This document shows positions 51,139-62,851 of a stretch of DNA of 64,000 nucleotides, one piece after another (the first letter of the stretch is position 1; each line of letters starts with the position of its first letter). The notes beneath the pieces were generated by a model. It had not been told where the DNA came from. It was given only the letters and a program-made list of their open reading frames with translations, and ran no database searches. The DNA comes from Chitinophagales bacterium (GTDB taxonomy: Bacteria > Bacteroidota > Bacteroidia > Chitinophagales > LD1). Where the stretch lies: the NCBI GenBank assembly GCA_035299425.1, contig DATGWP010000167.1, forward strand, positions 17,155 through 81,154, given 5' to 3'. The position numbers were made by a program, and so were the translations under genes.

Positions 51139-54100
51139 TTAGCGCAAAACAACCAGTTTTTCGTATTTATGGGCGGTATTGCCCTCGCCATCGCGTACAG
51201 CCAGTTTGTATACATATACCCCCTTACCAATGGCATCGCCATAATCATCAAGCCCATCCCATTCAATATTATCTACCCTGTAGCCCTGGCTTTGCACCTG
51301 CTGCACTATACTTTTTACCAGTTTACCGCTTACCGAGAATATCTGCACGCTGATACTTAAATCATCGCAGCAACGGTTATGCTCAAACATAAACTGGGTA
51401 TGAGTAGTAAACGGATTGGGGTAATTGTATACGTGCGACAACGCCAGTTTGGCATTGTTAGCCACTATAAACTCAGTAAATTCCTCGGATGAGTTATTAT
51501 GAATATCCCAGGCTTTTACCTTTAACGTATGGCGGCCCTCTTTCAGTTTGCTATAAGGATATTTTACCTCGCCTTGCTTATAATTATCAAGGGCACTTTC
51601 GTAGTAATCGTTCAGTACAACCCGGTTTTGCGTATTATCATCCAATATAGCCGTAAGGTCGTGGCCTATGCCATTACCTACCGTATTTATACCGCTTTGG
51701 TCCATTAGCTTAACCAGTAGCATAGGGTCGGTATTGGTAGTGCCGCCATACACAAACTTCTCATCGTTCATGTAAATACTCATCTCGGGGCCGGCATTAT
51801 CTACCCGGAAAGAGTCGGCCGAGCCGCCTATAATAATTTCATTGGTGTAGCCGTGCGCATCTACATAGCTGCTGTTATCGGCATAGTAGCTGATGCGGCC
51901 TTTGCCGTATTGGTAGTCTATATCTTTAGGCACTAAAAAGGTGAAACTAAAATCGCCATTGGTAACACTGGCCTTGCCTTTAAACAATACATTTTTGTAT
52001 TGCAGGAAGTTTACAATATTGCTTCCGGGGTCATTTTTAAGCGTGGTAACGGTTGATATTTTATCGTATACCATAGGATAAACCGTACCGGTAAATGAAG
52101 TCATTTTGTTTCCGTTATCATCGCGCACTTCGCCGCGTATTGTAACTTCTTCCAGCGCTTTTATGGTATCGGCGCTTATTACAGGGTTGTTGTTTACAGC
52201 TGTGGTTACCACATCGTAGCGCGGGTAGTTAAGCGTAAGGGCCGGGTCGCCAAGCAGGGTAAATTTACGGGTATTAGAACCCTGATTTACAGTGGCGTTT
52301 TTGGTCAGCATTATTATTTCGCCCAGGCGCGGGTAGCGGCCTTCGTAATCATCAAACATGTAATCGAAGGCGGCATCGTTAAGCGCTGCATTGCCCGATG
52401 AATAAACCAAACGCACGGTGGTGAGCGAGGCTATAGCGCCGCCTTTACCATTAACCACCAGCCACTCTCCGGCTGTGCGGATAGGTAAATCGAACCGGCT
52501 AAAATCGCAGGTGGCGGTAATAAACATAGGCAGCTTCTCTTTATTCTCCAGCGGCACTATATCGGCCATATTAAAAATACGCTCGTGCGCCCAGTTGGTT
52601 TCGCCGCCGTGGCCCACCCAGTTCATAATAAGGCAACCGGCGTTTAAGCGGTTAAGTATGGCTGTATTTACATCAGGGTACCTGTCGCCTGCCGGTGTAG
52701 GCGTTTGCTTGTAGGCATCCAGGTATATTTTTTCGTAGTTGTAAGCAGGTTGGCGCAAGCGGGTTTGCTCTGCCAATATATCGCTGCTGCCCAGGTGCAC
52801 GTTGTAATCTTCATCATCGCCAATAAACGAGATGATATTGCGCCAGCTGGCGTTATTATTTATCTGCACACAAGTGGCATCCTGTACCGGCCTTTTGTAG
52901 TTTTTTATCTTGTTTACCATATCCCAGGCATCGGTTTCGCTGCCGGCGGTAAGGCGGCCTATGCCAATATCCAGCAATTGCCCGCCACCGGTTATGTCGC
53001 CACCTTCGTTACTATCCAGCAAGCCAAAAAAATCATCAGATGTATAGCTTTCGGTAGGGCTGTCCGATTCAATACTCTGGTATGTAGAAACATAATTGTT
53101 ATTATTAGGCACACGGTTCTTAGGGTCGTAAGTACCATCGCCCATTAGCAAAAGGTAACGTGGCATTAATGCCGTATCGCCATTAGCGCGGTCGTAAAAC
53201 ATTTTTACAAAATCGCGCATGGCCGATATATCGGGTTTGCCGCTGCCAAACTCGTTGAATATCTGGCTTATTTTAACCACATCTACCGACAGATTGTCCA
53301 TGGTGCGGTGAAACTGCGCCAGCTCGTTGCTCGGATTAACAAACTCATCGGCTGTTATTATCAGCATGTCTGCCTGGCCCAGGGCGTGTAGGTTCTGATT
53401 CTCTATTTTGCCTACAAGAGTTGGGTTGGCAAACGAAGCCCCCATATTAAAGGCTATAAACTCTTTAAGCTCGCTGGTGGTGGTGGTGAAAGAAAACTGA
53501 GAGCCATTAAGCGTACCCTGCATCTCCTGTATATTGTCCAGGCTGGTAATGTTCCACACTTTAGTGTTTCCGCCGGCGTTGTTCAACTGAAAAGTAGAAA
53601 CGCTGCCTGCGCCAATAGATGCCACACTACGAAATGGCATGGCATCGCCGGCCATGGTTAGGCTGCGCTTAAGGAAAAGCTCAAACCAATCTACATAACA
53701 CGCTGCTGTTCCGGCGGGGTCTGCATTTGGGTTAAAGGTATAATTGATATTTAGCTGGCTGGAGTTGGCATTGTAGTTGGCAGTAAGCTGACCGGGTATA
53801 GATGCCTGCGGGTAGCTGCTGCTGGGTATGCCCCCTACCGAATGGGTAAACACAGTTTGGCCATTTATGCGCACAGCAGTGTTAGAGCCATACGTGGTAG
53901 CTGCGGCCACGCGTGAAGTAAATTTTACCGGTACCGATGTAATAAGGTTAGGAAAGTTAAGCGAAAAATCTTTGCTGTTATCAAAGCTGCTCATTTTGTT
54001 GCCCAGCCAACGCTTGCCCGTAGCTATCAGGTTCACTTCATCGCTTTCGTGGTAGGCATGCTCATCAAAATCCGTTATTGTTTTATTAGGGCTGGCATCA

Positions 54101-55002
54101 GAATATGCCGGTGTAACTCTTTTACCGGTTCCGGCATCGGTGGTTAAAAAATAATAGGTCTGGTCGGTGTATAGGTTCTTTTCGTGGGTAAACACCTGCG
54201 TGGTAGCATTAAATTTCCAGGCATCGGGCATTTGTCCGTAAAACAACAGATAGTCGCCATCGTCCATTTTATTGTTGCCGTTGTTATCTACCACCATAGT
54301 GGGGTTCTCTATCAGGTCATCGGGGCGGGCTACTGAGTTTAACTCAGGTACCATGCCGCCACCATTGCCATATATAGCCAGGGTGTTCAGGTTAAAGCTG
54401 GTGGGCTCTACTTTCAATATGTTCTTTACAAAATTGTAATCAACCTTATACATACCCTCTGCAGTTACGGCTATTTTATAGAAATTGCCACTGGCGAGTC
54501 GCGATGTGGTAGCATAAGCATTTAGCCCGCGATGCTGGGGTTTGGCGGTAACGGTTAAGCGCAGTGTAAACGATTCTAATCTCTCTACCACACCTGTCGA
54601 GGTGTTTTTTCTAAATGGCAAAAAAGAAACACTGGCATAAGGCTGTTTGCGCAATAGGCTCAAATCTGCTTTAGGTTCTATAGCATCTTTAATAAAGGCA
54701 AGGCTCGCATTATCTAACTGGCCCGATACAGCGTATACCGGGTTTACTAACTGAACACTAACATCGCCACTAACCGATAAGGGGATTAGCTCGCTATATA
54801 CAGGCAGCAATCCCAGTTGGTCGCTATGGGCAGCCTTAGTGAAAGTAGGCTGTATTATAGTTTTACCATCTATAGTTGAAAAGGTCTTTGTTTTGGGCAA
54901 CCACTCCAGTGTGCGATCGTAGCTTTGGGCATTAACATTTGCTACCCACAATAGCACCATTGCCAGTGCTGAGAATTTACAATTACCTGAAATTTTATTC
55001 AT
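51139..55002 (-). CDS. porU: T9SS sortase PorU (gingipain-like C25 peptidase); ORF track start 55029
   Basis: YKIAVTAEGMYKV, GNGGGMVPE, C25 dyad NWVGHGG / ITATCDF, GDPAL, own CTD (YPNPF...KLVVLR). Confidence 0.95.
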   Translation of the reverse strand: MNKISGNCKFSALAMVLLWVANVNAQSYDRTLEWLPKTKTFSTIDGKTIIQPTFTKAAHSDQLGLLPVYSELIPLSVSGDVSVQLVNPVYAVSGQLDNASLAFIKDAIEPKADLSLLRKQPYASVSFLPFRKNTSTGVVERLESFTLRLTVTAKPQHRGLNAYATTSRLASGNFYKIAVTAEGMYKVDYNFVKNILKVEPTSFNLNTLAIYGNGGGMVPELNSVARPDDLIENPTMVVDNNGNNKMDDGDYLLFYGQMPDAWKFNATTQVFTHEKNLYTDQTYYFLTTDAGTGKRVTPAYSDASPNKTITDFDEHAYHESDEVNLIATGKRWLGNKMSSFDNSKDFSLNFPNLITSVPVKFTSRVAAATTYGSNTAVRINGQTVFTHSVGGIPSSSYPQASIPGQLTANYNANSSQLNINYTFNPNADPAGTAACYVDWFELFLKRSLTMAGDAMPFRSVASIGAGSVSTFQLNNAGGNTKVWNITSLDNIQEMQGTLNGSQFSFTTTTSELKEFIAFNMGASFANPTLVGKIENQNLHALGQADMLIITADEFVNPSNELAQFHRTMDNLSVDVVKISQIFNEFGSGKPDISAMRDFVKMFYDRANGDTALMPRYLLLMGDGTYDPKNRVPNNNNYVSTYQSIESDSPTESYTSDDFFGLLDSNEGGDITGGGQLLDIGIGRLTAGSETDAWDMVNKIKNYKRPVQDATCVQINNNASWRNIISFIGDDEDYNVHLGSSDILAEQTRLRQPAYNYEKIYLDAYKQTPTPAGDRYPDVNTAILNRLNAGCLIMNWVGHGGETNWAHERIFNMADIVPLENKEKLPMFITATCDFSRFDLPIRTAGEWLVVNGKGGAIASLTTVRLVYSSGNAALNDAAFDYMFDDYEGRYPRLGEIIMLTKNATVNQGSNTRKFTLLGDPALTLNYPRYDVVTTAVNNNPVISADTIKALEEVTIRGEVRDDNGNKMTSFTGTVYPMVYDKISTVTTLKNDPGSNIVNFLQYKNVLFKGKASVTNGDFSFTFLVPKDIDYQYGKGRISYYADNSSYVDAHGYTNEIIIGGSADSFRVDNAGPEMSIYMNDEKFVYGGTTNTDPMLLVKLMDQSGINTVGNGIGHDLTAILDDNTQNRVVLNDYYESALDNYKQGEVKYPYSKLKEGRHTLKVKAWDIHNNSSEEFTEFIVANNAKLALSHVYNYPNPFTTHTQFMFEHNRCCDDLSISVQIFSVSGKLVKSIVQQVQSQGYRVDNIEWDGLDDYGDAIGKGVYVYKLAVRDGEGNTAHKYEKLVVLR

Positions 55003-55081
55003 AAAAAAGGGATAAGCCGATTCAATCATTATTTTTGACGCTCTTAAAAACTATAAATAGCGCAATAAAACGCAGCCATTT

Positions 55082-56143
55082 GTGTTTTATTTTGCAAAGA
55101 TTCGAATTTTGAACGCCAAACATAAATATACAGCCTTTATATTACTTGCGCTGCTTCCTTTTTGTGAACTTTTTTCGCAAGATGTAGAAATGAGCCAGTA
55201 TTTCACCGCCCCGCTGCACCTAAACCCGGCCATGGCGGGGGTATCTTACGGCCCGCGGGCTATGATAAACTACCGTAACCAATGGAGTGGCCTGGGCGAT
55301 GGGTTCAACGGCGGTTACACTACCTACATGGCGGGCGCCGATATGTTTATTGATAAAATACGCGGTGGCATAGGCCTGCACTTTGTGGGCGACCAGGTGA
55401 TGAATAACCTGTACGGTACCTATAAAGTGAGCCTTACCTACGCCCAGCAAATAAAATTTAACCGCAAAATGGCCTTGCGCATTGGCGTTCAGGGCACTTA
55501 TATACATAGCCGCATTAAGTGGAACGAACTGCTGTGGACAGACATGATAAACCCCTACACGGGTTTTTATAACAACATAAGCGTTCGCAATCCTACCAGC
55601 GAGCCTGCGCCGGGCGTAACTTCGCTGAATACGGGGGAATTTGGGGCCGGCCTGTTGTTTTTTATGGAGAAGTTTTACATAGGGTTTGCGGCCAATAACC
55701 TGCTGATGCACAAAGAGTCGTTTGCCCAGGGGGTAGACGCCCGCGTGCCTATGCGCTTTGCGGTACATCTGGGCAGCAACCTCAATGTAAAGCACCGCGC
55801 CTCCGCGCGATACAATATCTGGGTATCGCCTAACGTTTTATTTGTGAACCAGGGCATGGCTTTTCAGACCCAGGCAACGTTCCTTGCAGGAGTTAGTTTT
55901 ATGTATTTTGGGCTGGCCTATCGCAACGTGGTGTATAATTCAGATGCCGTAATTGGCCATTTGGGCTTTCGTAAAGGGAAATTCAGGGTGGGATACAGCT
56001 ACGATTACACTATTTCGAAGCTGATGAACAAAACAGGCGGAACACATGAGCTCTCCTTTACGTTTAACTGGACGGGCGAAGACAACTCTCTTAATTCACG
56101 TAAGAATTCAGGGTACATTGACTGCCCGGATATTCTGAAATAA
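55082..56143 (+). CDS. PorP/SprF-family T9SS membrane protein
   Basis: QDVEMSQYFTAPLHLNPAMAG, NYRNQWSG, GYSYDYTISKL, GGTHELSF. Confidence 0.9.
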   Translation: MFYFAKIRILNAKHKYTAFILLALLPFCELFSQDVEMSQYFTAPLHLNPAMAGVSYGPRAMINYRNQWSGLGDGFNGGYTTYMAGADMFIDKIRGGIGLHFVGDQVMNNLYGTYKVSLTYAQQIKFNRKMALRIGVQGTYIHSRIKWNELLWTDMINPYTGFYNNISVRNPTSEPAPGVTSLNTGEFGAGLLFFMEKFYIGFAANNLLMHKESFAQGVDARVPMRFAVHLGSNLNVKHRASARYNIWVSPNVLFVNQGMAFQTQATFLAGVSFMYFGLAYRNVVYNSDAVIGHLGFRKGKFRVGYSYDYTISKLMNKTGGTHELSFTFNWTGEDNSLNSRKNSGYIDCPDILK

Positions 56144-56285
56144 GCGGCCAACCGGTAAATTTAAACAGGTATGAACTTGTTAAATACCGATTGAAAATTT
56201 ATTACTGCTTTTTTTTGGGCTTTGATTGAAAATTATAATTTAGCAACCTTTAAATTTGAAACCCTTTTAAAATTAAATAAACAAC

Positions 56286-57779
56286 ATGAAGCTAAGTAAA
56301 TTGTATCCGCTTCTCGCTTTGCCGCTGTTGATAGCATCTTGCGGTAAAGAAAAGTCGTCGGTAACCGGATGGAACTACAACGACTCCAAGAACGGAGGTT
56401 TCGAAGTAGTAAAAAACAGAGAGCAGGAAACAGGCCCTGGTCTGGTTTACGTTCAGGGTGGTACTTTTGTAATGGGTAATACCGAACAGGATGTAATGTT
56501 CGAATATCACAACATTGCACGCCGCGCTACTGTATCATCGTACTACATGGACGAAACAGAGGTTGCCAACGTACACTACCGCGAATACCTTTACTGGATG
56601 AACCGCGTTTTCGGAACAGATTTTCCGGATGTGGTTAAGAAAGCTTTGCCAGATACTTTGGTATGGAGAGATGAATTAGCTTACAACGAGCCTTACGTAG
56701 AGTACTACTTCCGTCACCCGGCTTACGATTTCTACCCGGTGGTAGGTGTTAACTGGTTACAGGCTAACGACTTTGCTTCATGGCGTTCTGATCGTGTAAA
56801 CGAAAGAATACTTATTGAAAAAGGTGTATTAGCTGAAAACCCATCGCAAGTGGGTAGCGATAACTTCAATACAGAAGCTTACCTGGTAGGCCAGTATGAA
56901 GGTGCTGCCGGTAAACGCCCTATGAAAGATTTGAACCCGCAAGGAACAGGTACTCGCCATGTGCGCTTAGAAGATGGTATCATGTTGCCTAAATACCGCT
57001 TACCAACAGAAGCTGAATGGGAATATGCAGCCCTGGGCCTTATTGGTAACCAACCAGCCGGTAGCGAAGAGCGTATTACAGACCGTCGTATCTATCCATG
57101 GAATGGTACTTCTACCCGTTATCCTAAATCAGGACAATGGCAAGGTGAGTTCCTGGCTAACTTTAAGAGAGGACGTGGTGATAACATGGGTATCTCTGGC
57201 CGCCTGAACGATAACGCAGATATTACTGCACCGGTTAAGTCTTTCTGGCCAAACGATTTCGGCTTGTATAACATGAGCGGTAACGTAAACGAGTGGGTAT
57301 TGGATGTTTACCGTCCTATGACTTCGCAGGATGCTAACGACTTCCGTACCTTCCGTGGTAACCAGTTTAAGACCAAGGTACTTGATGCCGATGGCAAACC
57401 GGTTGAAAAAGACTCTTTGGGTAAAGTTCAATACCGCGATGTTACACAGGAAGAAAGCGCTAACCGCCGTAACTATCGCCGTGGCGATGTTAGAAATAAC
57501 ATAGACGGTGATGAGGTTTCTAACGTAGATTACAAATTCGGCCAATCTTCACTGATTAACGAAGATTCTCGTGTATACAAAGGTGGTAGCTGGAAAGACC
57601 GTGCATACTTCCTTTCACCAGGAACCCGCCGTTACTTAGACCAGGCTTTGGCTACCGATGATTTAGGTTTCCGTTGCGCTATGGACCGCGTAGGTTCTCC
57701 ATCGGGTAAAACCATGAAGGGCGGTAAGGGAGGAAACAACTTCCCTAAAGAAAAAGGTAAACGTAAAATGAAAGGATAA
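56286..57779 (+). CDS. gldJ: Gliding motility lipoprotein GldJ (FGE-sulfatase domain)
   Basis: Lipobox IASC; SSVTGWNYND, EQETGPGLVYVQGGTF, YMDETEV, RLPTEAEWEYAA; porU-gldJ-murF synteny typical of gliding Bacteroidota. Confidence 0.88.
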   Translation: MKLSKLYPLLALPLLIASCGKEKSSVTGWNYNDSKNGGFEVVKNREQETGPGLVYVQGGTFVMGNTEQDVMFEYHNIARRATVSSYYMDETEVANVHYREYLYWMNRVFGTDFPDVVKKALPDTLVWRDELAYNEPYVEYYFRHPAYDFYPVVGVNWLQANDFASWRSDRVNERILIEKGVLAENPSQVGSDNFNTEAYLVGQYEGAAGKRPMKDLNPQGTGTRHVRLEDGIMLPKYRLPTEAEWEYAALGLIGNQPAGSEERITDRRIYPWNGTSTRYPKSGQWQGEFLANFKRGRGDNMGISGRLNDNADITAPVKSFWPNDFGLYNMSGNVNEWVLDVYRPMTSQDANDFRTFRGNQFKTKVLDADGKPVEKDSLGKVQYRDVTQEESANRRNYRRGDVRNNIDGDEVSNVDYKFGQSSLINEDSRVYKGGSWKDRAYFLSPGTRRYLDQALATDDLGFRCAMDRVGSPSGKTMKGGKGGNNFPKEKGKRKMKG

Positions 57780-57856: not shown

Positions 57857-59197
57857 ATGCAAGTTGAACAGCTATATCAAAAGTATTTAGCCTCTACGGG
57901 TGTAACCACCGATACCCGTAACATTGGCCAGGGCAATATCTTTTTTGCCCTGAAGGGTGAAAAATTTAATGCGAATGAGTTTGCCGCCGAAGCGCTAAAC
58001 AAAGGTGCTGCTTGCGTAGTGATAGATGAATTAATAAACCCGCATTGGCAAACCGAATACGGCGACAGGCTGATACTGGTTGATGATGTGCTTACAACCT
58101 TGCAGCAACTATCCGGCTACCACAGGCAACAACTAAACTGCCCGGTAATAGCCATAACCGGTAGCAACGGCAAAACAACCACCAAAGAACTTGTAGCTGC
58201 TGTGTTGGCTAAAAAATACCGCACCTATGCTACCAAAGGCAACCTGAATAACCACATAGGTATACCGCTTACACTGTTGAGCATAAAGGATGATGTGGAG
58301 ATGGCTGTGATAGAAATGGGCGCGAACCACCAAGGCGAAATAGCGGGCTATTGCGAATATGTAAAACCCGACTATGGACTAATAACCAATGTAGGCAAGG
58401 CACACCTGGAGGGTTTTGGAGGCTTTGAGGGCGTGGTAAAAGGCAAAACAGAGTTATATCGGGATATTGCAGCACGCAAAGGCAAGGTTTTCATTAACCG
58501 CAATAATGAAATACTGGCACTTATTTGGGCTGGGCTGGCATCCAGAGCCAGTTTCGAAAAAGGTTCAACTATTACATATGGCTCTTCTTCTGATGTATTT
58601 AGCAGCGGTATAATAAAGGCGGGCACAGAGTTTCTTACGATTTCCACCGAAGGCTTGGATATTTCCACCAACCTGCTAGGCGATTACAACTTCGAAAATG
58701 TAATGAGCGCTATATGCATAGGTAAATATTTTGAGGTGCCGCTGCCTGCTATAAAAAACGCCATTGAAACTTATACGCCAACCAATAACCGGTCGCAAAA
58801 AATTGAGTGGGGCAGCAATACAATTATTCTTGATGCATATAATGCCAACCCAAGCAGCATGATAGAGGCCTTAAAGAATTTTGAAAAGTACATTGCTGGC
58901 GATAACACTAAAAAGGGCATAGCCATTATAGGGCAAATGATGGAGCTTGGCGAATACGCTGCACAGGAGCACGAAAAAATATTTGCTGCAGCTAATACCT
59001 CGGCATGGCAGAATATAAAGCGGGTGTTTGTAGGCAAAGGGTTTGAAATGGTAAAGCACTTATCTGCAAGTAACCTGCTTTGGTTTGAAACCACTGATGA
59101 GGTGAAGCATTGGTTTAAGCAGCAGGCATTTGAAAATACACTCCTACTTATAAAAGGCTCACGCAAAAATGAGCTGGAGAAAATTTTGAAAAATTAA
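57857..59197 (+). CDS. murF: UDP-N-acetylmuramoyl-tripeptide--D-alanyl-D-alanine ligase
   Basis: TTDTRN, AITGSNGKTTTKE, GNLNNHIGIPLT, EMGANH, DAYNANPSS, KGSR. Confidence 0.96.
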   Translation: MQVEQLYQKYLASTGVTTDTRNIGQGNIFFALKGEKFNANEFAAEALNKGAACVVIDELINPHWQTEYGDRLILVDDVLTTLQQLSGYHRQQLNCPVIAITGSNGKTTTKELVAAVLAKKYRTYATKGNLNNHIGIPLTLLSIKDDVEMAVIEMGANHQGEIAGYCEYVKPDYGLITNVGKAHLEGFGGFEGVVKGKTELYRDIAARKGKVFINRNNEILALIWAGLASRASFEKGSTITYGSSSDVFSSGIIKAGTEFLTISTEGLDISTNLLGDYNFENVMSAICIGKYFEVPLPAIKNAIETYTPTNNRSQKIEWGSNTIILDAYNANPSSMIEALKNFEKYIAGDNTKKGIAIIGQMMELGEYAAQEHEKIFAAANTSAWQNIKRVFVGKGFEMVKHLSASNLLWFETTDEVKHWFKQQAFENTLLLIKGSRKNELEKILKN

Positions 59198-59235
59198 AAC
59201 AAGTACGGAGAGCATTTGACTGCTGCTCAAAATCA

Positions 59236-59267
59236 TTTGGCGCTTTCCTTCTCAAGGCGTAAACTTG
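59236..59267 (+). promoter_or_regulatory. Candidate sigma-A promoter TTTG-N20-TAAACTTG for the small Cys-rich ORF / mbnPH unit
   Basis: -33 TTTG at 59236-59239 and -7 at 59260-59267 (one mismatch), with canonical spacing; TTG start only 7 nt downstream. Confidence 0.5.
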
Positions 59268-59274
59268 CAGTGCT

Positions 59275-59646
59275 TTGAAAAAACTACTGTCTGTTTTTTT
59301 GGTTGTAACCATTATATCGCAAACGCTTATCAGCGTAGGCGTAGTGTTGCATTATCAGGCCAACAAAGCATATATAAGCCAGCAGCTTTGCGAAAACCGC
59401 AATAACCCTATGGCCCATTGCAAAGGACACTGCTACTTAAGCAAGCAATTGAAAAAAGCCGAAGAAGGCGAGCAGAAACAATCGAGAAACATTTTGAAAG
59501 AAAAAGACGAGATAATTTCTTGTACTACCAAAACGGCACCTGCTAAGTATTACCCGGCTTTTTCTGCCATAATATATACTCCCCACCAGGAAAACAAACC
59601 GCCTACCGATTGTACCGGAAGCCTGCTTAAGCCACCAACTGCTTAG
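59275..59646 (+). CDS. Small exported Cys-rich protein (DUF2946/CruR-like upstream ORF candidate)
   Basis: N-terminal hydrophobic segment, LCENRNNPMAHCKGHCYLSKQL, C-terminal LLKPPTA; TTG start. Confidence 0.7.
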   Translation: MKKLLSVFLVVTIISQTLISVGVVLHYQANKAYISQQLCENRNNPMAHCKGHCYLSKQLKKAEEGEQKQSRNILKEKDEIISCTTKTAPAKYYPAFSAIIYTPHQENKPPTDCTGSLLKPPTA

Positions 59647-59759
59647 CCAATATTTTTTTGAAGAGGCTTCGCCTCTCTTTTCCGGGTTATCATATCATTA
59701 TCCTAATTGCTATGCGGCATTATGCGCGTATAGCGTAATCTTATTTAATATTCAAAAAC

Positions 59760-60554
59760 ATGAAAAAGAATTTCTTTTATATAGCTATTGCGTTTATCCT
59801 TTTCACTTCGGTATCGTCTTGCAAAAAAGAAGATACAGGACTTACCGGTAACGGGCCATTAACCTTACATTTTGACAACAGAGTTGGTAATGACAACTTT
59901 ATTATGAATACAGACGTAACCATCGAGTCGGGCGAAACGATAAACGTATCGAACCTGAAATACTATGTAAGCAACTTCGTTCTGGTAAAAGAAGACGGCT
60001 CTGAATATACTGTACCGCAAGAAGGCAACTACTTTCTGATAGATGAATCAGTAGATTCATCACTTGAAGTAACCCTGCAAAATATCCCGGCTGGCAACTA
60101 CACCAGCATAAAATATATTCTGGGTGTAGATAGCTTACGAAGCACCATGGATGTGTCTCAACGCACCGGCGCACTGGACCCTGCCGGCGCTGGTTCAGAC
60201 ATGTACTGGAGCTGGAACAGCGGCTATATATTCTTTAGAATAGATGCTACTTCGCCTGCCAGCACCGAAGTGGGTAATATGTGTATGTTCCATGTTGGCG
60301 GCTATGGTGGCTACTCTACACCAAGCGCCAACAATATCCGTAACATTACCCTGAGCGCTCCTCAAACAATACATGTGCGCGAAAATGAAAATCCGGAAGT
60401 ACACATTTTTGCTGATATACTTCAGGCTTTTAAAAGCCCCCAGGTCTATTCTATTGCAACTGATGGTGCAGTATTTCACATGGCCCCGGGCTCTGGAACA
60501 AAAATGGCCAATAACTATGTAGATATGTTTACCATTGACCATGTACATGAATAA
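59760..60554 (+). CDS. mbnP: MbnP-family copper-binding lipoprotein
   Basis: Lipobox VSSC; LKYYVSNFVL, MYWSWNSGYIF (WxW), FHVGGYG; sits directly before a di-heme enzyme. Confidence 0.82.
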   Translation: MKKNFFYIAIAFILFTSVSSCKKEDTGLTGNGPLTLHFDNRVGNDNFIMNTDVTIESGETINVSNLKYYVSNFVLVKEDGSEYTVPQEGNYFLIDESVDSSLEVTLQNIPAGNYTSIKYILGVDSLRSTMDVSQRTGALDPAGAGSDMYWSWNSGYIFFRIDATSPASTEVGNMCMFHVGGYGGYSTPSANNIRNITLSAPQTIHVRENENPEVHIFADILQAFKSPQVYSIATDGAVFHMAPGSGTKMANNYVDMFTIDHVHE

Positions 60555-60603
60555 GATATTGAAACAACCGGGCGCTTACAATCGCCCGGTTGCTATTTCA
60601 AAA

Positions 60604-61638
60604 ATGAAAACGCTATTCCTCCTGTTTTGTGTAGGCCTTGTGACTATTTCTTCATGTAACAAGACGGGAAACACTAAGGAAGAAATAACTTTTTCCAGTC
60701 CATCCAACTTTCCTGCGCCTAAGTACAATTTTAACAACAACCCTGTTACAACCCAGGGATTTGAACTGGGCAGAAAATTGTTTTATGATGTTTCGCTTTC
60801 GCGCGATAACTCTACCAGCTGCGGGACGTGCCATTCTTCATTTTCTTCGTTTACACATCACGGGCATGCGGTTAGCCACGGCATAGACAATAAACTTGGT
60901 ATACGCAACGCTCCACCGGTGATGAATATGGCCTGGCTGGATGAGTTTATGTGGGATGGAGGCATTAACCAACTGGATATGCTGCCTATTGCACCTATAG
61001 AAAACCCCGTAGAAATGGACCTGGAGTTTGCCGATGCGGTTAATAAAATACGGAATAACCCGGCTTATCCTCCACTGTTTAAATCGGCATTTGGTTCCGA
61101 AGAGGTTAGCGGCCCCAGGCTTCTGCAAGCCTTAAGCCAGTTTATGAATATGCTGGTTAGTGCAAACTCTAAATTTGACAAATGGAAACGCGGTGAAGAT
61201 GGAGTAACTCTTACACCGGAGGAAAATGAAGGGTATCAGTTGTTTGCTCAAAAAAAATGCAGCAGCTGCCACAGTACCGATTTGTTTACCGACCAGAAGT
61301 TTCACAATAACGGAATTAAGAATAGCTTTTTGATTGATAGTGGCCGCACCCATATTACAAACCGTGCCGAAGACATTGGCAAATTTAAAACCCCATCGCT
61401 TCGCAATCTGCAGTATACGAGGCCCTTTATGCACGATGGCAGCATCTCGACCCTTGAAGGGGTTTTAGATCATTATAGCAGTGAGGTTAAGATATCGGCT
61501 ACACTGGATACAGTTCTAAACAACAATGGAGCCTTAGGCATTCCACTTACTTCAGATGAGAAGGCTAAAATTATTATGTTCCTTAACACGCTTAACGATC
61601 CGGGCTTTGTAACGGACAGGCGCTTTGCCGAGCAGTAA
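60604..61638 (+). CDS. mbnH: MbnH/MauG-type di-heme cytochrome c enzyme, lipoprotein (ORF track start 60535)
   Basis: Two CxxCH (SCGTCH, CSSCH), FMWDGG, KFKTPSLRN, MHDG with Tyr at His+14 (VLDHY), the MauG-type rather than the Met/CcP-type ligand position. Confidence 0.82.
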   Translation: MKTLFLLFCVGLVTISSCNKTGNTKEEITFSSPSNFPAPKYNFNNNPVTTQGFELGRKLFYDVSLSRDNSTSCGTCHSSFSSFTHHGHAVSHGIDNKLGIRNAPPVMNMAWLDEFMWDGGINQLDMLPIAPIENPVEMDLEFADAVNKIRNNPAYPPLFKSAFGSEEVSGPRLLQALSQFMNMLVSANSKFDKWKRGEDGVTLTPEENEGYQLFAQKKCSSCHSTDLFTDQKFHNNGIKNSFLIDSGRTHITNRAEDIGKFKTPSLRNLQYTRPFMHDGSISTLEGVLDHYSSEVKISATLDTVLNNNGALGIPLTSDEKAKIIMFLNTLNDPGFVTDRRFAEQ

Positions 61639-61720
61639 CTAAAAAAGATTCTCTTTTTTTAGCACAGATTATTTAAGAAGCTTGGAGGGGCCTTTATTAT
61701 TTGTGTTTAAATTGCAAGGT

Positions 61721-62851
61721 ATGCTAACCCTTACCAACAAAGAAGCCCGCAACATCATTCTCACCAGTCAAGGCTTGGCCGATAACTCTTTTGGCAAAAA
61801 GAAAGAGGGCGCCTTAAACGCTATAGAGCATTTAGGTTATGTGCAGATAGATACTATATCGGTAGTAGAGCGGGCACACCACCACACCATCTGGAGCAGG
61901 GTAAACGATTACCACAGAAAATATTTAGACGAATTAGTGGAAGATAAAAAGGTGTTTGAATACTGGAGCCATGCGGCAGCTTACCTGCCCATGCGCGATT
62001 ACCGGTTTAGCCTGATGAGAAAGAACCTATACGCTACCCGTAAGCTGGGCTGGTATTTTAATAAGCGCGCCACCAAATTTATTTATGACCGTATTAAAGC
62101 CGAAGGCCCGTTGCAATCAAAAGATTTTGAAGAGAAGAAAAAACAAGGCGGTTGGTGGAACTGGAAAGAGAGCAAAATTGCACTGGAGCAGCTTTATATG
62201 GAAGGCAAATTAATGGCAACAAGCCGCAAAGGTTTTCAGAAAGTATATGACCTTACCGAGCGTGTATTGCCTGCCGGTATAAATACAACGCCACCTACCG
62301 AAGGAGAATATGCCGAATACCTTATCCGCAAAATCGTTCGTGCCAATGGCATAGCTGCCAAAAGCGAAATGGGCTATCTGCGTCCCTACACTAAAGCATT
62401 GGTAGCAAAAACGCTTAACGAACTTATAGAGGGAAAGGAAATTATACCGGTAAAAGTAAAAGGCATAGAGAAGGATGTGTTTTACAGCACCGAAGCGAAC
62501 ATGGAGAACAACCTCACACAAAAAGCAAATAAGCAGGTTAAAATACTTTCGCCCTTTGATAACAGTGTAATACAGCGCAACCGGCTGAAGAACATCTTTG
62601 GCTACGACTATACTATTGAGTGCTATGTGCCTGAACCTAAACGTGTGTATGGCTACTTCTGCCTGCCTGTACTATTCGGTAATGACTTTATAGGCCGTAT
62701 GGACTGCAAAGCCGACCGCCAGAATGAAACCCTGATAGTAAAAAGCGCTTACTACGAAAAAGGATTTAAGCCCACTGCTAAATTCAAATCAGAATTTGAG
62801 AAAGAGATGAAGCTGTTTGCCAGGTTTAACGGGTGTGTCGCAATTAAATAA
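61721..62851 (+). CDS. YcaQ/AlkZ-family winged-helix DNA glycosylase (crosslink repair); ORF track start 61682
   Basis: LGYVQIDTISVVERAHHHTIWSR (QxD), FEYWSHAA, ILSPFDN, YTIECYVPEPKRVYGYF. Confidence 0.88.
   Translation: MLTLTNKEARNIILTSQGLADNSFGKKKEGALNAIEHLGYVQIDTISVVERAHHHTIWSRVNDYHRKYLDELVEDKKVFEYWSHAAAYLPMRDYRFSLMRKNLYATRKLGWYFNKRATKFIYDRIKAEGPLQSKDFEEKKKQGGWWNWKESKIALEQLYMEGKLMATSRKGFQKVYDLTERVLPAGINTTPPTEGEYAEYLIRKIVRANGIAAKSEMGYLRPYTKALVAKTLNELIEGKEIIPVKVKGIEKDVFYSTEANMENNLTQKANKQVKILSPFDNSVIQRNRLKNIFGYDYTIECYVPEPKRVYGYFCLPVLFGNDFIGRMDCKADRQNETLIVKSAYYEKGFKPTAKFKSEFEKEMKLFARFNGCVAIK

Follow-up and report, generated by a model that had tools for sequence, protein, structure and literature searches.

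The leader ORF and its locus

We analysed a 64,000-nucleotide (nt) stretch of DNA from a Chitinophagales bacterium (contig DATGWP010000167.1, positions 17,155 to 81,154), referred to below as the window. Our subject is a short open reading frame (ORF), here called the leader ORF, which sits at the head of genes for a predicted copper-binding protein, MbnP, and an MbnH-like di-haem enzyme (Table 1). A sequence-only reading of the window had proposed that the leader is a copper-sensing upstream ORF (uORF) that controls mbnP-mbnH through ribosome stalling, in the manner of CruR of Bordetella and CutF of Rhodobacter. The 123-residue frame opened by the TTG codon at 59275 is a real gene, as had been supposed, and is conserved in homologs; its 123 close, word-sharing homologs are mostly exactly 123 residues long.

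The encoded protein begins M-K-K, with K2 and K3 placed before a hydrophobic helix, and the 15 residues after the helix carry no net charge. The export signal claimed for this end is borne out by a predicted transmembrane (TM) helix (residues 2–29) in the AlphaFold2 (AF2) model, and the same N-terminus is found family-wide. A signal anchor with N-in/C-out topology is predicted. A cysteine cluster follows, C39-x9-C49-K-G-H-C53, with His-48 and His-52. The cluster and its histidines had been recognised in the sequence-only reading, although with the spacing C-x10-C-x3-C; the sequence reads C-x9-C-x3-C. We regard this three-cysteine (Cys3) motif as a candidate metal (copper) site. The protein ends S-L-L-K119-P120-P121-T-A-stop, with the proline codons at 59632-59637, so that the C-terminal KPP noted earlier is read directly from the sequence. 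The segment L-L-K-P-P is a candidate ribosome-arrest motif.

The genes directly downstream are those that had been named, with matches to PF20243 and PF03150 (Table 1); an MbnP domain followed by a MauG-like di-haem enzyme thus lies immediately 3′ of the leader ORF. The window MbnP scores 58.1 bits against TIGR04052 in NCBIfam (cut-off 140) and the MbnH-like protein 213.7 bits against TIGR04039, the MbnH family (cut-off 362.85). Both scores are below the cut-off, and the two proteins are therefore family-level members and not equivalogs of the proteins of methanobactin operons. The real start of mbnH is likely the ATG at 60604, since tblastn alignments to relatives begin near residue 24.

Table 1 Features of the leader ORF region (positions in the window)
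Feature	Position (strand)	Description	Evidence
Promoter-like element	59236..59267 (+)	-33 TTTG, 20-nt spacer, -7 box TAAACTTG	sequence, motif scan
Leader ORF	59275..59646 (+)	123 aa, TTG start	translation; homolog conservation
Signal anchor (predicted)	59278..59361 (+)	K-K then hydrophobic helix, residues 2-29	AF2, pLDDT >90
Cys motif (candidate metal site)	59389..59433 (+)	C39-E-N-x3-P-x3-C49-x-G-H-C53	invariant Cys in family
C-terminal core (candidate arrest motif)	59623..59646 (+)	L-L-K-P-P, then T-A, stop	P120/P121 invariant in family
Spacer, leader ORF to mbnP	59647..59759 (+)	113 nt, two hairpins, no -7 box	
Hairpin 1	59662-59676	AGAGGC/TTC/GCCTCT, then CTTTT	
Hairpin 2	59709-59734		
mbnP	59760..60554 (+)	264 aa, predicted copper-binding protein, MbnP family	PF20243 E = 1.9e-51
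mbnH-like	60535..61638 (+)	di-haem MauG/CCP enzyme	PF03150 3.1e-51
aa, amino acids; pLDDT, predicted local distance difference test score.

A conserved family in Bacteroidota

The leader belongs to a large, previously undescribed Bacteroidota family. At E<=1e-3 the family comprises 3545 cluster representatives at 50% identity, nearly all of them 120-130 residues long. In an even sample of 301 Bacteroidota genomes from 144 genera, a search profile built from 97 diverse members located the family in 110 genomes and 58 genera, often in one to three copies. Exact look-up placed members in Pedobacter, Thermoflavifilum, Flavisolibacter, Chryseobacterium, Flavobacterium, Edaphocola and Ignavibacterium; the NCBI and UniRef names retrieved for members all read ‘hypothetical protein’. 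The leader protein has no match in Pfam, NCBIfam or a PDB sequence search, and Pfam likewise gave none for the 97 diverse members. Foldseek found no match in the PDB. An NCBI family name, ‘HYC_CC_PP’, was considered; neither release 20 of NCBIfam nor the literature bore it out, and it was dropped.

Only seven columns are invariant among the 97 diverse members: C39, N41, C49, G51, C53, P120 and P121. The N-terminal TM helix is present family-wide and the conserved cysteine motif may be written C-x9-C-x-G-x-C. In a set of 266 family proteins, 262 carry C-x9-C-x3-C and 258 have Pro-Pro inside their last 16 residues; conservation of the terminal xPP, which had been put forward as a check, was thus found. 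The Pro-Pro is followed by two residues in 146 of the 266, by three in 39 and by four in 36. It is preceded by K, H, R or Q in 238 of the 258, with F, L, I or V one position earlier. The information profile shows a six-residue core, [S/D]-[ILV]-F-[HRKQ]-P-P, and the C-terminal consensus of the family is [ILV]-[F/L]-[H/K/R/Q]-P-P, mostly 2-4 codons ahead of the stop.

Between the charged helix (residues 52-79) and the Pro-Pro core runs a linker of poorly conserved sequence. The distance from the last cysteine to the first proline is nonetheless narrowly distributed, at 65-68 residues in 213 of 254 proteins (84%) with modes at 66 and 67. In distant branches the spacing of the first cysteine is altered and a terminal PP or PPP with 2-3 further residues is kept. 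The ORF, the cysteine motif, the terminal Pro-Pro and the position of the promoter (below) are far beyond chance, because they are conserved across hundreds of homologs; the two hairpins of the spacer (below), taken alone, are not.

Predicted promoter and start codons

The promoter-like element that had been described ahead of the TTG start is present. It consists of TTTG at 59236-59239 and, after 20 nt, TAAACTTG at 59260-59267, which departs from the Bacteroidota -7 consensus, TAnnTTTG, at one position. The box ends 7 nt ahead of the TTG at 59275; transcription is predicted to start at 59272-59275, and the predicted 5′ untranslated region (UTR) is about 3 nt. The arrangement recurs in the family: a strict TAnnTTTG ending 4-9 nt before the start was found for 25 of 63 family genes and for 6 of 466 control ORFs, and a further 13 family genes, that of the window included, have a one-mismatch box at the same place. 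The -7 box spans positions -12 to -5 relative to the transcription start (PMC9723704). With the box so placed, the family mRNAs are predicted to have 5′ UTRs of 0-5 nt and to be leaderless. In B. thetaiotaomicron and F. psychrophilum the share of leaderless mRNAs among all transcripts is only 3.7-5.5%.

Start codons in the family are TTG in 26, GTG in 18 and ATG in 20 of 64 genes, which makes 44 non-ATG starts; in the strictly leaderless set, 20 of 25 starts are non-ATG. Three observations support the position of the start. The distance to the first cysteine is constant (38 residues in most members), codons 2-9 show synonymous changes among close relatives, and the NCBI gene calls agree.

Genomic context

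The surroundings of 71 family genes in 65 loci across the phylum were surveyed. The next gene is co-directional in 68 of the 71. It encodes a cysteine-rich barrel protein (CCC-barrel, described below) in 23 cases, MbnP, usually followed by MbnH, in 17, a TonB-dependent receptor in 12, and a YtkA-like protein followed by a TonB receptor in seven; elsewhere the genes that follow encode a YHS-domain protein, SCO1 and superoxide dismutase, or DUF2911 and COX1 proteins. The spacer after the family gene has a median length of 91 nt (interquartile range 57-130) and is shorter than 30 nt in 4% of cases, against a median of 40 nt and 46% below 30 nt for control co-directional pairs from the same loci (p = 2e-7). 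The family spacers are also more skewed towards C over G than the controls (p = 0.005).

Several Chitinophagales relatives hold a single cluster with an RGPP-type small ORF (below), a TonB receptor, the family gene, the CCC-barrel, MbnP, MbnH and a DUF4625/CopC-like lipoprotein. In the source genome this cluster is split between three contigs, and a small Cys/PP ORF heads each piece. The second leader copy (L063 5998-6369 (-), that is G000:C68:23700-24068) is 54% identical to that of the window and has its own -7 box, TAGCTTTG, 7 nt before a TTG start. It heads genes for a CCC-barrel and a DUF4625/CopC-like lipoprotein, which in relatives form one operon with mbnPH. At locus L086 two leader copies that are 80% identical each head a different gene set. 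We note a tandem arrangement in Chryseobacterium camelliae (L084 5959-8510), where a YHS-domain lipoprotein, SCO1/SenC and an Fe/Mn superoxide dismutase are encoded behind the first of two leader copies, and MbnP-MbnH-CCC-barrel behind the second. A cis-acting leader accounts for one copy per sub-operon more easily than a subunit specific to one partner would.

The best NCBIfam match of two of the downstream TonB receptors is the copper receptor TIGR01778, with scores far below the cut-off; others look siderophore-like. The copper assignment therefore rests on the MbnP/H, SCO1, YHS, COX1 and CopC-like neighbours.

The CCC-barrel proteins are about 300-340 residues long and have a signal peptide followed by Q-[AS]-C-C-C-[TNA]-[GS]-x-[GS]-x-N-[YW]-S-I-[LM]-P-N. 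Their genes occur at L001 4461-5381, at L063 next to the leader and at 34 other loci, and co-occur with MbnP-MbnH across Bacteroidota. The proteins have no NCBIfam match and a weak match to an autotransporter beta-domain in Pfam; they may be cysteine-rich outer-membrane barrels for copper. Downstream of TonB receptors that a leader heads there are often genes for BNR/sialidase-like lipoproteins of 405-432 residues (L069 4340-5557 (-), L070 8904-10202, L019 6795-8081), in which the motifs C-C-P-C-C-R-T-D and G-C-P-H-T-G-P occur.

A further type of small ORF, of 108-135 residues, lies directly upstream of TonB-dependent receptors in the source genome and in related clusters. These RGPP-type ORFs were located at L105 1070-1408 (-) (G000:C6), L001 1084-1410, L008 1095-1427, L014 939-1277, L015 1145-1471 and L016 3415-3822. 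They combine a TM segment, a His-rich stretch (HYLF..H..HEHC.NH.H), a C-x-x-C motif and a C-terminal L-R-G-P-P with 2-4 further residues. The L016 protein passes PF11162, the DUF2946 family (31.3 bits), and the other RGPP-type proteins do not. That of the source genome has no Pfam pass, and by BLAST it is like the L016 protein chiefly at the LRGPP end. Experiments have validated RGPP as an arrest motif (PMC12992588). A validated class of arrest peptide is present, at the head of TonB receptors, in the same clusters as the leader family.

The Bacteroidota origin of the window is supported by its type IX secretion genes, and its nearest relatives are Chitinophagales metagenome-assembled genomes. 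Sequencing runs that contain the window sequence represent DNA contigs of a strain about 96.5% identical. A search for transcripts found no RNA run for the family locus of Pedobacter and, for that of Chryseobacterium, fragmentary contigs of low depth that carry no information on 5′ or 3′ ends. A type IX secretion/gliding neighbourhood occupies 51139-57779 and includes a 1296-residue Peptidase_C25 protein (PorU-like), a PorP/SprF membrane protein and an FGE-sulfatase-domain (GldJ-like) lipoprotein. It is followed by murF (57857-59197) and then by the leader region. Directly after mbnH, at 61682-62851, lies a gene for an AlkZ-like DNA glycosylase (PF06224, 1.8e-66), which is probably unrelated to the copper genes.

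The spacer upstream of mbnP

The two hairpins that had been described between the leader ORF and mbnP are present, and both form in the minimum-free-energy fold of a 171-nt region. This region is not significantly more stable than its shuffles (z = -1.6). Hairpin 1, which had been described as terminator-like, fails the T-run criterion of a terminator scan. In close relatives hairpin 1 contains a disrupting change, whereas hairpin 2 is retained by means of G-U wobbles; in the comparison with locus L104 no change falls in its 5′ arm or loop, and all changes in its 3′ arm give G-U pairs. Conservation of the hairpins, also suggested as a check, is thus seen for hairpin 2 among close relatives and does not extend to the family. 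A search of Rfam gave no match to a known RNA family in the window spacer.

A promoter of its own for mbnPH within 59647-59759 would have told against control by the leader. The motif scan found no TAnnTTTG in this interval, only one-mismatch matches in T-runs, and an internal promoter was accordingly rejected.

Comparison with L104 shows that the 77 nt upstream of the start (59198-59274) are 87% identical and the spacer (59647-59747) is 77.6% identical, against 58.5% at codon third positions. Both the upstream region and the spacer evolve more slowly than codon third positions, so the non-coding sequence is constrained in the lineage of the window. One block of 22 nt, TAATTGCTATGCGGCATTATGC, shows no change at all; it takes in the 5′ arm of hairpin 2 and may represent an RNA element or the operator of a protein. 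Across the family, spacers fold somewhat better than controls when scored against mononucleotide shuffles (median z -1.85 against -0.86, p = 0.014).

Proposed mechanism and alternatives

From the anatomy of the family, its place in operons, the position of its promoter and the constraint on its spacer we infer a scheme for topology, metal, arrest and control. The leader ORF would be a cis-acting uORF whose nascent peptide reports metal in the envelope, most likely copper, to mbnP-mbnH. We put the probability of this reading at roughly 0.55. Its extension is more tentative, and we hold it at somewhat less than even odds: a phylum-wide class of leaderless, mostly non-AUG-initiated, membrane-targeted arrest peptides, independent of DUF2946, in which a new arrest core and a periplasm-exposed Cys3 motif sensing copper would gate copper-acquisition operons (MbnPH, TonB receptors, barrel, SCO1/YHS).

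In the proposed scheme transcription would start 0-5 nt before the start codon, giving a leaderless mRNA that is translated from its 5′ end. The signal anchor would bring the translating ribosome to the membrane. With the ribosome at the Pro-Pro, the Cys3 motif would lie about 67 residues behind and would just have emerged on the periplasmic side; about 35 residues in the exit tunnel and about 30 across the translocon would account for the distance from the cysteines to the Pro-Pro. Metal binding or folding at Cys3 would then change the pause of the ribosome on [ILV]-F/L-[H/K/R/Q]-P-P. The length of the pause at the 3′ end of the ORF would set whether transcription or translation passes across the spacer into mbnPH, either because Rho or a terminator is blocked, as in CruR, or because an RNA structure is opened, as in CutF. 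The C-rich spacers and the lack of a conserved RNA structure fit a Rho-type mechanism. In the window, control could gain a further, local layer from hairpin 1, as a weak terminator, and from hairpin 2. Since MbnPH and the TonB receptors serve acquisition, copper would more likely repress, as in CruR, than induce.

The analogy with CruR and CutF is favoured by the fixed spacing of the cysteines and Pro-Pro, by the position at the head of operons and by the long, constrained spacers. It is favoured also by the single copy per sub-operon, the leaderless promoters and the RGPP-type uORFs resident in the same clusters. Several results weigh on the other side. Some of the downstream TonB receptors look siderophore-like and not copper-specific. 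PF11162 has no match in the window protein (E<=1) and none in the 97 diverse members (0/97), and hhalign of the family profile against DUF2946-like proteins gave a probability of 13%, with the TM segment alone aligned. The family motif is neither RAPP nor RGPP. No conserved RNA structure was detected across the family spacers; perfect hairpins occur in 29 of 60 of them (48%) and in 69 of 198 control spacers (35%, p = 0.07), and pairing of the ORF 3′ end or of the next start codon is not enriched. Finally, the AF2 coil of residues 80-123 has a moderately high pLDDT (63-87), which fits a folded mature protein whose C-terminus is packed on the rest.

This last point leads to the serious rival, a stable membrane copper protein that acts in trans, alone or beside a cis role. 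Taken alone, the leader product would be a small bitopic inner-membrane protein in copper uptake, either a periplasmic Cys3/His relay for Cu(I) or an anchor for MbnP, the barrel or a TonB receptor, in which F-H/K-P-P would be structural or would bind a partner. The AF2 model (mean pLDDT 84), with a C-terminal coil that is not disordered, is consistent with such a protein, as are the strongly conserved juxtamembrane residues N30, I34, L38 and P45, the constant co-occurrence with envelope metal proteins and the spacers in which no conserved RNA element was detected. A structural subunit, however, needs neither the first place in 68 of 71 units nor a long constrained spacer. There is one copy per sub-operon although the partners differ (a lipoprotein, MbnP; outer-membrane barrels; SCO1; COX1), and the two L086 copies head different gene sets despite their high identity. 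The linker is variable in sequence yet fixed in length, the Pro-Pro is always within a few codons of the stop, and neither a fold nor a sequence relative is found in the PDB. We consider the purely trans-acting protein unlikely on this evidence, though it is the alternative to be taken most seriously.

The two roles might also be combined, the nascent peptide regulating in cis and the released protein serving as a copper-binding membrane protein. Such a dual function agrees with the evidence for a cis leader and with that for a trans protein, and the papers on CutF and CruR do not fully settle what becomes of the released protein; being less parsimonious, it seems to us distinctly improbable. 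A precursor of a secreted or modified Cys copper-binding peptide (chalkophore-like), or a trans-envelope anti-sigma-like device for TonB receptors, would suit a small, Cys-bearing product that adjoins MbnPH and TonB receptors, but is very hard to credit given that no MbnB/MbnC-type maturases, sigma factors or FecR-like genes were seen among the neighbours examined, that conservation lies in the N-terminal half and the last five residues and not in a leader/core layout, and that a TM anchor is atypical for the precursor of a ribosomally synthesised and post-translationally modified peptide.

The cis-acting uORF, if it is correct, has consequences beyond the window. Metal-sensing arrest uORFs (CruR, CutF) were discovered recently; those known so far are linked with DUF2946 and with RAPP/PPP motifs and come mostly from Proteobacteria. 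The leader family is a strong candidate for a new variant of them. It would be an independent solution that fills the gap in Bacteroidota, present in about a third of the sampled genomes, and would supply a new candidate arrest sequence for structural work on the ribosome. The regulation would be built on leaderless, non-AUG mRNAs and would give a handle on unstudied Bacteroidota copper-uptake clusters (MbnPH, CCC-barrel, TonB receptors). Thousands of ‘hypothetical proteins’ gain a testable annotation.

Comparison with known arrest peptides

CruR (Bp2923 of Bordetella pertussis) is a copper-responsive uORF of the DUF2946/PF11162 family in which ribosome stalling, modulated by copper, prevents Rho termination; its regulation depends on the conserved spacing of its motifs (PMC9426467). 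The hallmarks of DUF2946 are an export signal, a CxxC or CxxxC motif and an RAPP or proline-rich motif about 3 residues from the end, with spacing kept within 1-2 residues, a first position in copper/TonB operons and a long intergenic region. The leader family shares with CruR the small size, the export signal or N-in TM segment, the cysteine motif and a Pro-Pro a few residues before the stop. It shares also the conserved spacing of motifs, the place at the operon head before TonB receptors, MbnP/H-type and copper proteins, and the long intergenic region. The two differ in the motifs themselves, C-x9-C-x3-C against CxxC and [ILV]-F/L-[HKRQ]-P-P against R-A-P-P, and in the distance from cysteine to proline, about 67 residues in the family and 45 in DUF2946. 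The family is leaderless, starts mostly at non-AUG codons and belongs to Bacteroidota, whereas CruR is found mainly in Proteobacteria.

The comparison of hidden Markov models with DUF2946 that the sequence-only reading had called for was negative: there was no PF11162 match, and the profile-profile probability was the 13% given above. Membership of DUF2946 was thus ruled out by the Pfam scan of the window protein and 97 relatives and by hhalign. PF11162 is absent from the source genome.

In CutF of Rhodobacter capsulatus, also DUF2946, stalling induced by copper during co-translational export opens a stem-loop that shields cutO (PMC9973294; bioRxiv 10.1101/2025.02.05.636593). CutF and the family have in common a C-x3-C motif, an N-terminal targeting signal of the Sec/SRP type (SRP, signal recognition particle), a C-terminal proline motif and a position immediately upstream of a copper protein gene; sensing of periplasmic copper by the nascent chain, known for CutF, is for the family an idea. 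In contrast to the family, the signal peptide of CutF is cleavable and its proline motif is PPP. Its stem-loop covers a Shine-Dalgarno site, while no conserved hairpin that masks the start was found in the family. Bacteroidota are not known to use Shine-Dalgarno-led initiation.

The RAPP/RGPP peptides (ApdA, ApdP, SecM-like, S. lividans uORFs; PMC12992588, PMC10951233) resemble the family in being small secretory or membrane proteins with Pro-Pro near the C-terminus. They too are encoded upstream of other genes, metal-related ones included, and regulation of these is known for RAPP/RGPP and would be expected by analogy for the family. Their Arg at -3 and Ala/Gly at -2 are absent from the family, which has a basic or polar residue directly before the Pro-Pro and an aromatic residue before that. 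The class is defined by a core R-[A/G]-P-P, R-A-G-P or R-A-P-G at the arrest site, which the family lacks; the pattern R-x-P-P is absent. A 2025 survey reported copper genes preceded by RAPP/RGPP uORFs in many phyla, with none in Bacteroidota (PMC12992588).

The only other candidate arrest uORFs of Bacteroidota found in the literature precede secA/secDF and end N-S/A-P-stop (PMC10987492). Those have a single proline directly at the stop, whereas the leader family has Pro-Pro with 2-4 further residues, the Cys3 motif and metal-related envelope genes downstream. At polyproline (XPPX) sites two consecutive prolines in a defined context pause the ribosome, and elongation factor P (EF-P) relieves the pause; the Pro-Pro is invariant in the family and may be such a site. 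Of the proposed Bacteroidota counterpart to CruR and CutF, then, the architecture and the conserved Pro-Pro have stood; homology to DUF2946 was not detected, and the hairpins are not conserved across the family. The leader family is probably an analogue of DUF2946 and not a member of it, a nascent-chain metal sensor that is new as a family.

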